Positions 38,020 through 38,440 of a DNA stretch of 64,000 nucleotides are shown here, piece by piece. The first letter of the stretch is position 1. Each line of letters opens with the position of its first letter. Both the position numbers and the translations under genes were made by a program. The stretch is from an uncultured delta proteobacterium (GTDB taxonomy: Bacteria; Desulfobacterota; Desulfobacteria; Desulfobacterales; SpSt-501). Location: the NCBI GenBank assembly GCA_963791285.1, contig CAWBSC010000024.1, forward strand, positions 286,578-350,577, written 5' to 3'. Below the pieces are notes generated by a model that worked only from the letters and a program-made list of their open reading frames with translations, was not told where the DNA came from and searched no databases.

Positions 38020-38440
38020 CGTGGTTTCGGCCGCCAGAACTCGGAATTCCGGGTCACTTCCTCTATATTCCGTATAAACGCGGGCACGAATTCCGGGGGC
38101 GGAGGAAACGTAATGGCCTCCTGATTTGGCGGTGTGGCAGGGAGCTGCTGAGCAAGTCCATGACCGCGGACACCGGGAAAGTGGCGTCATCCGTACCAGG
38201 TGCAAACCCCGACCAGTTTCTCACATGATCTTCCGACCGGAAGAGGTGGATCCGGCTTCAGGCGTCCGGCCAGTTCTCGGCCCAACGGCTCAAGGGGATG
38301 TCCACATAACCGCAAATTTCGGCCGGATCTCGGCTTTCAATCATCCCGTCCCGCACGACCAACCGCAGGGTTTCGCCACAATCGAGCCAGGGCGCATCGA
38401 TTCAAATGGCTTTCCCGGGGAAGACCTATCAGACCGCCTG
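38020..38440 (-). pseudogene. decayed MerB-like organometallic lyase gene with a Sec codon (UGA 38258-38260)
   Basis: minus frame reads [28 protein letters not shown]...[21 protein letters not shown]-terminus continues in shifted frames (HYVSSAP / EFVPAFIRNIEEVTRNSEFW); absent from the ORF track. Confidence 0.65.
38222..38248 (-). promoter_or_regulatory. putative SECIS hairpin of the MerB-like relic
   Basis: TCTTCC-GGTC-GGAAGA stem-loop starting 13 nt after the UGA, with an outer CAC/GTG pairing. Confidence 0.65.

Follow-up and report, generated by a model that had tools for sequence, protein, structure and literature searches.

The stretch of DNA analysed here, called the window in what follows, comprises 64,000 nucleotides (nt) from an uncultured delta proteobacterium with a genomic G+C content of 64%, and carries on its minus strand a broken reading frame related to the organomercurial lyase MerB. 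This frame lies between a gene of the TauE family and an arsenic island that contains arsR, an arsM-like gene, an ArsP gene, an unknown gene and a GNAT gene. Read in the phase set from position 38599, it holds four in-frame stops, TGA at 38431-38429, TAG at 38428-38426, TGA at 38404-38402 and TGA at 38260-38258; the last of these is followed by 13 nt (AGCCGGATCCACC) and then by the hairpin TCTTCC-GGTC-GGAAGA at 38244-38229, all of it present as the original prediction for this locus had described. The outer C.U of the hairpin is unpaired in the window copy. It is proposed that the element at 38022-38441 is very probably what is left, without function and with its 5' part lost, of a gene whose widespread family has the MerB fold and carries UGA codons for both metal-binding cysteines.

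The relationship to MerB was evident at several levels. Translated with Cys at each TGA, the 116 residues of the remnant matched the Pfam MerB family (PF03243) at E=1.2e-5 and 25.7 bits, compared with a gathering score of 27. By DNA alignment, the remnant makes up the gene's 3' two-thirds, about residues 97-233 of an intact homologue of 235 residues (L002), and in a search of its own genome the family profile hit it over model positions 96-200 (E=2.4e-31), with three TGA and one TAG inside the match. The nearest homologue of the remnant shares 67% protein identity with it over 94 residues (E=2.3e-39), and at the DNA level identity reaches 72% over 349 nt.

Homologues were sought by a six-frame search of 41 related genomes, including that of the window, and four other genomes were found to hold them, with one TGA within each matched part. 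When these matches were extended, intact frames of 231-250 residues emerged (intact members having about 235 residues), each with two in-frame TGA codons. The first lies in the motif KWFGQ-TGA-GFE(A/S)LAV and the second, 65 codons on, in x-TGA-S(T/R)(M/I)(N/H)LFRSE(E/D)H, this second TGA being preceded by a codon for T, A, S or N. A wider scan of one genome per species yielded 419 stretches confirmed by tblastn, of which the best 80 were examined together with the five earlier loci (85 loci, 83 of them distinct). The second site (site 2) was TGA in all 85 loci, and the first (site 1) was TGA in 79 and TGC in the other six. The hosts among the best 80 were mostly metagenome-assembled genomes of Desulfobacterota, with others labelled Nitrospiraceae, Anaerolineaceae, Burkholderiales and Alphaproteobacteria, and one host, Pelotomaculum propionicicum strain C1, is cultured. 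In a sample of the window's order, 30 of 201 genomes gave a family match at E<=1e-10, most of the matches with two TGA. At one locus (L066, 5163-5405) a third in-frame TGA replaces the Gly of LFPGK; this may be a decaying copy or an error.

Protein databases represent these genes poorly. When protein representatives were searched exhaustively with HMMER, most of the sequences recovered were fragments, about 91, 155 or 77 residues long, that end or start at the TGA codons, and a second protein search returned full-length entries with W at both sites, as would result from gene calling with a code that reads TGA as Trp. Where the entries carry a name it is 'hypothetical protein' or 'alkylmercury lyase(-like)', and all 120 listed homologues carry PF03243. 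A few full-length relatives with Cys at both sites were also found (P0179, P0006, P0010 and P0013). The pattern expected of a selenoprotein, a conserved in-frame UGA with Cys in the same column of some relatives, is therefore found in this family.

The fold of the family was examined on L002, the nearest intact homologue, which was modelled with AlphaFold2 from a 39-row alignment with TGA as Cys (mean predicted local distance difference test score, pLDDT, 96.4; predicted template modelling score, pTM, 0.91). In a Foldseek comparison of this model with the PDB, places 1-11 were all taken by MerB or MerB2 chains, with E values of 1.2e-9 to 8.2e-7 and template modelling scores of 0.45-0.69, and the hit at rank 12 had an E value of 0.3. 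The family profile matched MerB2 (5c17) at E=5.6e-26 and MerB at about 1e-12, and three intact members scored 70.4, 67.8 and 67.2 bits with the Pfam MerB model, above its gathering score. In MerB, Cys96, Asp99 and Cys159 have an established role in protonolysis of the Hg-C bond. In the profile alignment, Cys96 is matched by the first TGA of the family, Asp99 by a Glu three residues further on, and Cys159 by the second TGA. The reading of the window frame as MerB-like and the assignment of the TGA at 38260 to a catalytic position, both made in the original prediction, are thereby borne out, the latter by the alignment with Cys159 and the conservation of this TGA across the loci. The single selenocysteine (Sec) codon that it envisaged tells half of the story: site 2 is conserved, and the family has a second Sec site, at the Cys96 column, which falls within the portion missing from the window copy.

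Each of the two TGA codons is followed by a hairpin that most likely serves as a selenocysteine insertion sequence (SECIS). At site 2, a stem of CUCUUCC/GGAAGAG with a GGUC loop starts 12-13 nt past the TGA in all 82 aligned sequences, and the 7-bp helix is 97.7% paired over these 82 rows. Compensatory changes occur in five of the seven pairs (for example, C-G in 46 vs U-A in 14 sequences at one pair, and C-G in 70 vs U-A in 5 at another), the observed covariation was reached by none of 500 shuffles, and pairing fell from 91.9% to 41-55% when the partners were shifted. Of the 82 rows, 80 have the GGUC loop, and the Arg-Ser encoded there is written CGG-TCG in 80 of 82, out of 36 synonymous combinations. 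Sequences that use TTT for Phe in place of TTC have AAA (Lys) where the pairing codon is otherwise that for Glu, meaning that the amino-acid change follows the RNA pairing. At site 1, a stem of (G/C)CUGGC...GCUGG(C/G) with a loop of the GGUCU type starts 11 nt past the UGA, and pair 15-31 is G-C in 58 sequences and C-G in 17. All six pairs of this stem are formed in 73 of the 75 TGA forms vs one of the six TGC forms; among the remaining TGC forms, four keep four of the six pairs and one keeps a single pair. A conserved, covarying stem-loop just 3' of the UGA, as required of a bacterial selenoprotein gene, is thus observed, and the hairpin that had been pointed out in the window is the conserved element of the family. 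The SECIS of Escherichia coli fdhF likewise has a GGUC loop.

The genome of the window encodes components of the selenocysteine machinery: selB (384 bits) and selA (606 bits) are over their cut-offs, as is selD (360 bits), which has one in-frame TGA. It also holds two further MerB-like copies. One is a second dead paralogue, a fragment of 170 nt at G000:C23:317150-317320 (loci L007 and L121), in which the first TGA is kept, a TGG has become TGA, and similarity is lost after about 57 codons. The idea that this fragment and the window remnant are two halves of one gene was rejected; the two overlap at model positions 96-142 with 78% DNA identity, and so they are separate copies. The other is a gene at G000:C24:85520-86195 (L120), which shares the contig of the window and lies about 200 kb upstream of it. 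This gene belongs to a different subfamily, with the motif YWGN-U-AWD ... FT-U-ATILAFRSKDH, and TGA stands at each of its catalytic columns. It changes frame three times, and the orthologues in G011 and G009 have two TGA in a single frame. The L120 copy looks functional apart from the three frame changes, which are probably assembly noise. A search of the whole assembly with the profile found no stretch matching positions 1-85 of the remnant's own subfamily. A PF03243 search of genomes gave nothing in the window's genome and nothing in any of 14 control genomes, and is hence uninformative.

Whether the remnant is truly decayed was addressed by aligning to the stretch the contigs of four metagenome runs (X1-X4) from related populations with DNA 90-99% similar. 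Upstream of about 38441, some 95 N-terminal codons (about 285 nt) are missing, along with the first Sec codon and its hairpin, and the spacer that separates the remnant from the arsR start is too short to accommodate them. The junction to arsR is covered without gaps by a 605-nt contig of X1 that spans 38348-38946. The stop at 38404-38402, a Gln codon turned into TGA relative to L002, is unchanged in contigs of X3 and X4 and is TAA in X1; it is present in independent contigs and is therefore a shared, real stop. Likewise, the covering contigs of X1, X3 and X4 show no difference at the Trp codon 38389-38387. Independent metagenome contigs thus show three lesions to be real and shared: the truncation, one nonsense codon and the change of Cys to Trp. 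A pseudogene is expected to show, in independent data, a lost start and N-terminal region and stops outside the Sec columns; contigs of other runs share the junction with arsR and the 38404 stop, as well as Trp at 38389.

Other lesions have a different status. The TGA-TAG pair at 38431-38426 reads TGC-TGG in all three covering contigs (X1, X3 and X4), indicating that it is specific to the window assembly or strain. The insertion near 38145 is absent from contigs of X2 and X3 and that near 38095 from a contig of X3; in the window, these two insertions, which the original prediction does not mention, push the C-terminal third of the remnant through two frame changes. The TGA-TAG pair and both frameshifts may be very recent changes or errors of the window assembly, the insertions being probably indel noise. 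Of the decay that had been proposed at the outset, the missing 5' end, the stop within the AI*I sequence and the change of Cys to Trp are therefore upheld, and the TGA-TAG pair is not. The features of the locus are compiled in Table 1.

Table 1. Position of the MerB-like remnant, its lesions and retained elements, and the adjoining genes in the window.
Feature	Position	Strand	Basis
Double-selenocysteine MerB-like pseudogene remnant	38022..38441	-	L002 DNA alignment, Pfam MerB match, own-genome profile match
TGA of the second Sec site (MerB Cys159 column), retained	38258..38260	-	TGA column in 85/85 loci, profile alignment
Site-2 SECIS-like hairpin CUCUUCC-GGUC-GGAAGAU, retained	38228..38245	-	Alignment and covariation
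Nonsense TGA; homologues have Q, K, R or T in this column	38402..38404	-	L002 alignment
TGA-TAG in place of the TGC-TGG (Cys-Trp) of homologues; the 3' arm of the site-1 hairpin is destroyed here	38426..38431	-	L002 alignment
TGG (Trp) in place of a nearly invariant Cys, PCLDCG motif	38387..38389	-	L002 alignment
Two single-base insertions (near 38145 and 38095)	38095..38145	-	Three-frame translation, L002 alignment
136-nt spacer from the truncation point to the arsR start	38442..38577	.	Nothing alignable upstream of about 38441
Divergent arsR (HTH_5), arsM-like methyltransferase, ArsP permease	38578..40975	+	Pfam, NF008823, ORF list (open reading frames)

Based on this evidence, a scheme can be put forward for the intact members of the family. 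These carry UGA at the positions of both metal-binding cysteines of MerB, with Glu in place of Asp99, and the hairpins 11-12 nt past each UGA would most likely be SECIS elements, bound by SelB, that recode UGA as selenocysteine. Selenium would then be inserted at both sites, a prediction made from sequence. By analogy with MerB, the intact enzyme could carry out protonolysis of a carbon-metal(loid) bond with a Sec/Glu/Sec triad, an organomercurial being the leading guess for its substrate. The window copy can make no such enzyme, since it has no start, lacks the first 95 or so codons and the first Sec, and bears at least one shared nonsense codon and the Cys-to-Trp change; the second UGA and its hairpin would survive in it only because the decay is recent.

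Several observations weigh against this interpretation, most of them concerning the hairpins. No Rfam family matched L002, L003 or the locus in the window (L109) at E<=1, and the fold energies of single sequences are ordinary (z=0.15, 0.12 and -0.68), only site 2 of L002 standing out at -2.35. The stretch of 40 nt around the hairpin of the window folds no better than shuffled versions of it (z=0.15), 102 of 200 of which equal or surpass it, and its minimum-energy fold takes a different pairing; the window hairpin is thus meaningful because of the comparison with relatives, and not as a single sequence. Both stems lie within conserved coding sequence, and part of the site-2 stem arises because the Phe codon TTC and the Glu codon GAA are complementary. 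Three distant forms with Cys at both sites keep five, six and six of the seven site-2 pairs in the same register, one of these three has a perfect site-2 stem with a different loop, and the shuffle controls applied to the hairpins ignore relatedness among the sequences. A tRNA for selenocysteine was not found in the assembly, which is 77.7% complete (none with Aragorn; best Rfam RF01852 match 45.2 bits, threshold 47), which is not read as its absence. Lastly, the related contigs lack both frameshifts and two of the three additional stops, and the degree of decay is overstated by the window assembly.

The genes next to the remnant bear similar marks. The arsM-like gene (39024-39858) is spread over two frames, its N-terminal Cys-rich part in one and the methyltransferase core in the other; with NF008823 it scores 325.5 bits over model positions 40-268 only, the N-terminal 39 model positions falling in another frame, and contigs of X2 and X4 show a further gap within 39024-39858. 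Between 38947 and 39008, at the 3' end of arsR and in the arsR-arsM spacer, 16 letters of the window are missing from the contigs of two to four runs, and the arsR of the window runs without a stop into the arsM frame, which may reflect indel noise of the assembly or a variable stretch. Further along the island, the GNAT acetyltransferase gene (41584-42041), in an ArsN-like position, is seemingly split over two frames, and the minus strand at 45700-47259 carries an Acr3-type SBF transporter and a second arsR with 71% DNA identity to the first. The window assembly looks indel-prone, because of the 16 extra letters, the two-frame arsM and the three frame changes in the third MerB-like gene, and the frameshifts and some of the stops in this assembly are not to be taken at face value.

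These traits raise the possibility that the MerB-like gene is intact in the organism and that its breakage consists of base and indel errors of the assembly. The absence of both insertions and of the TGA-TAG pair from related contigs would fit this explanation, as would the 16 extra letters near arsM and the triple frame change of the third MerB-like copy, whose orthologues are single-frame. It is nevertheless very improbable, as X3 and X4 have the same stop at 38404-38402 and X1 has TAA there, the Cys-to-Trp change persists in the contigs, the 136 nt to arsR compare with about 285 nt of missing coding sequence, the junction is crossed without gaps by the 605-nt contig of X1, and the assembly has no match to positions 1-85 of the subfamily. 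Even less credit can be given to the explanation that frame, stops and hairpin arose by chance, which we regard as practically excluded. Long spurious frames are common in a genome of such high G+C content, and the fold of the single sequence is not significant, but a chance frame is already refuted by the protein identity to the homologue, the DNA identity and the profile match.

The two remaining alternatives accept a MerB-like protein and differ in the company it is given. In the original prediction it formed, with ArsM and ArsP, a functional module for methylation and demethylation of organoarsenicals or organomercurials, and a tie to arsR-arsM-arsP could make it an anaerobic carbon-arsenic lyase or part of an organoarsenical module. 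The remnant is indeed head-to-head with arsR in an arsenic island (arsR, arsM-like gene, ArsP, GNAT, Acr3-type SBF transporter and second arsR), one locus (L041) has an ArsM-like gene with 61% identity about 2 kb away, and sites of the MerB family are able to bind other metals, according to Haft & Gwadz (2022; 10.1101/2022.07.06.499078). On the other hand, when the ArsM and ArsP of the window were compared by BLAST with the flanks of 82 family loci, L041 was the only locus with a close ArsM-like neighbour and no match to ArsP was found. No neighbour is conserved among these loci, the commonest cluster of flanking open reading frames occurring in 10 of 82. The intact orthologue from the same genus (G007) has neither arsR nor TauE adjoining it, in the order sample 9 of the 17 genomes with strong two-TGA matches have an ArsM that exceeds its cut-off vs 78 of 184 others, and the window itself combines conserved ars genes with a dead MerB-like gene. 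A link to arsenic is therefore unlikely, the claim of a module with ArsM and ArsP finds no support in these neighbourhoods, and the position of the remnant beside the ars genes is most likely incidental.

The last alternative assigns the remnant to SaoL (NF040728), which marks a nine-gene SAO locus and was described by Haft & Gwadz (10.1101/2022.07.06.499078). SaoL is a selenoprotein related to MerB; its single Sec is part of a CU dipeptide at the Cys159 position, and the other two positions of the triad hold Cys and Asp. The family belongs to the same superfamily and has Sec at the same column, and NF040728 is the best NCBIfam match of its intact members. Their scores of 41.8 and 36.5 bits compare with a cut-off of 140, however, and membership was rejected on this score; moreover, the T, A, S or N that precedes the second Sec leaves no CU dipeptide, a second Sec at the Cys96 column has not been described for SaoL, and a conserved multi-gene neighbourhood is lacking. 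This assignment is extremely improbable, and the reading of the element as a truncated remnant of a separate, double-selenocysteine MerB-like family is retained.

What the intact members of this family do may be approached through co-occurrence. In the 201 genomes of the order sample, HgcA was over its cut-off in 92 and ArsM in 87. HgcA is present in 14 of the 17 genomes with strong two-TGA matches (odds ratio 6.3, Fisher p=0.0018, uncorrected for kinship and genome size); four of these 17 genomes belong to one genus, and the counts were taken by hand from tables. No hgcA over the cut-off was found in five sampled genomes of the window's genus (G000 and four others). The co-occurrence of the family with hgcA is a lead, not a finding; the flanks of the 82 loci do not support an ars or hgc module, and at the genome level the association favours hgcA (14/17) over arsM (9/17). 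Many of the ArsM matches in the order sample have one or two in-frame TGA, which fits the selenoprotein forms of ArsM included in a 2026 review (PMC13188914).

It can be speculated, with considerable doubt, that the intact family represents a diselenolate organometal lyase of strict anaerobes acting on methylmercury or another organomercurial, a demethylating counterpart of HgcAB in mercury methylators without a mer operon, and that the gene is dispensable and decaying in the genus of the window, in whose five sampled genomes no hgcA exceeded the cut-off. Locally, the consequence of the dead gene in the window is nil. Its value is that of a pointer to a MerB-like group, seen in hundreds of species, with predicted Sec in place of both catalytic cysteines, a group that gene callers fragment or read with W at both sites and that the curated SaoL and MerB models miss. 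If cleavage of C-Hg bonds were true of these enzymes, it would bear on the removal of methylmercury by anaerobes that also make it.

In the literature, a recent compilation of 119 selenoprotein families and subfamilies has SaoL, with its CU motif and one Sec, as the sole MerB-like entry (Zhang et al., 2026, Table 1; PMC13188914), and a 2022 review (PMC9312934) likewise presents SaoL as the MerB-like selenoprotein. Full-text literature searches, with paywalled papers and supplements outside their reach, surfaced SaoL alone and no double-Sec MerB-like family. On the predicted positions of its Sec residues, the present family is an uncatalogued selenoprotein subfamily, because under the rule given in PMC13188914 a subfamily counts as distinct when its Sec position or motif differs.

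The comparison with known systems places the family among its relatives. P0179, a protein of 239 residues from the Cys/Cys members of this clade, has the same motifs and about 48% identity over the full length, and differs in having Cys at both sites, so that no recoding is needed. The subfamily of L120 (with orthologues L124 and L125) is also MerB-like, with two TGA at the catalytic columns and, after the second, a CCUUC/GAAGG hairpin with a GGUC-containing loop; unlike the family described here, it keeps the Asp, and its score against the family profile is much lower, 67.5 bits over positions 8-99. SaoL shares with the family the MerB superfamily (PF03243), the Sec at the Cys159 column, the occurrence in anaerobes and database entries cut short at UGA, and is set apart by more than its cut-off: its single Sec stands in a Cys-Sec dipeptide, in contrast to two Sec at the Cys96 and Cys159 columns, no CU and a Glu for Asp in the family, and its nine-gene neighbourhood contrasts with the absence of any cluster in more than 10 of the 82 family loci, as judged by open reading frame clustering, the Sao models not having been run on the flanks. 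With MerB and MerB2 (EC 4.99.1.2; PDB 3f0o, 3f2f and 5c17), sequence identity of the Foldseek hits is 14-18%, the MerB equivalog models give intact members 28.3 and 35.5 bits (NF009710, cut-off 193) and 23.5 and 29.3 bits (NF033555, cut-off 200), and clustering of the flanking frames at the 82 loci showed no mer operon context. The fold is the same and the catalytic columns align, and where MerB and MerB2 have a triad of Cys, Asp and Cys, the aligned columns of the family read Sec(TGA)-Glu-Sec(TGA), which suggests the same geometry with a different chemistry.

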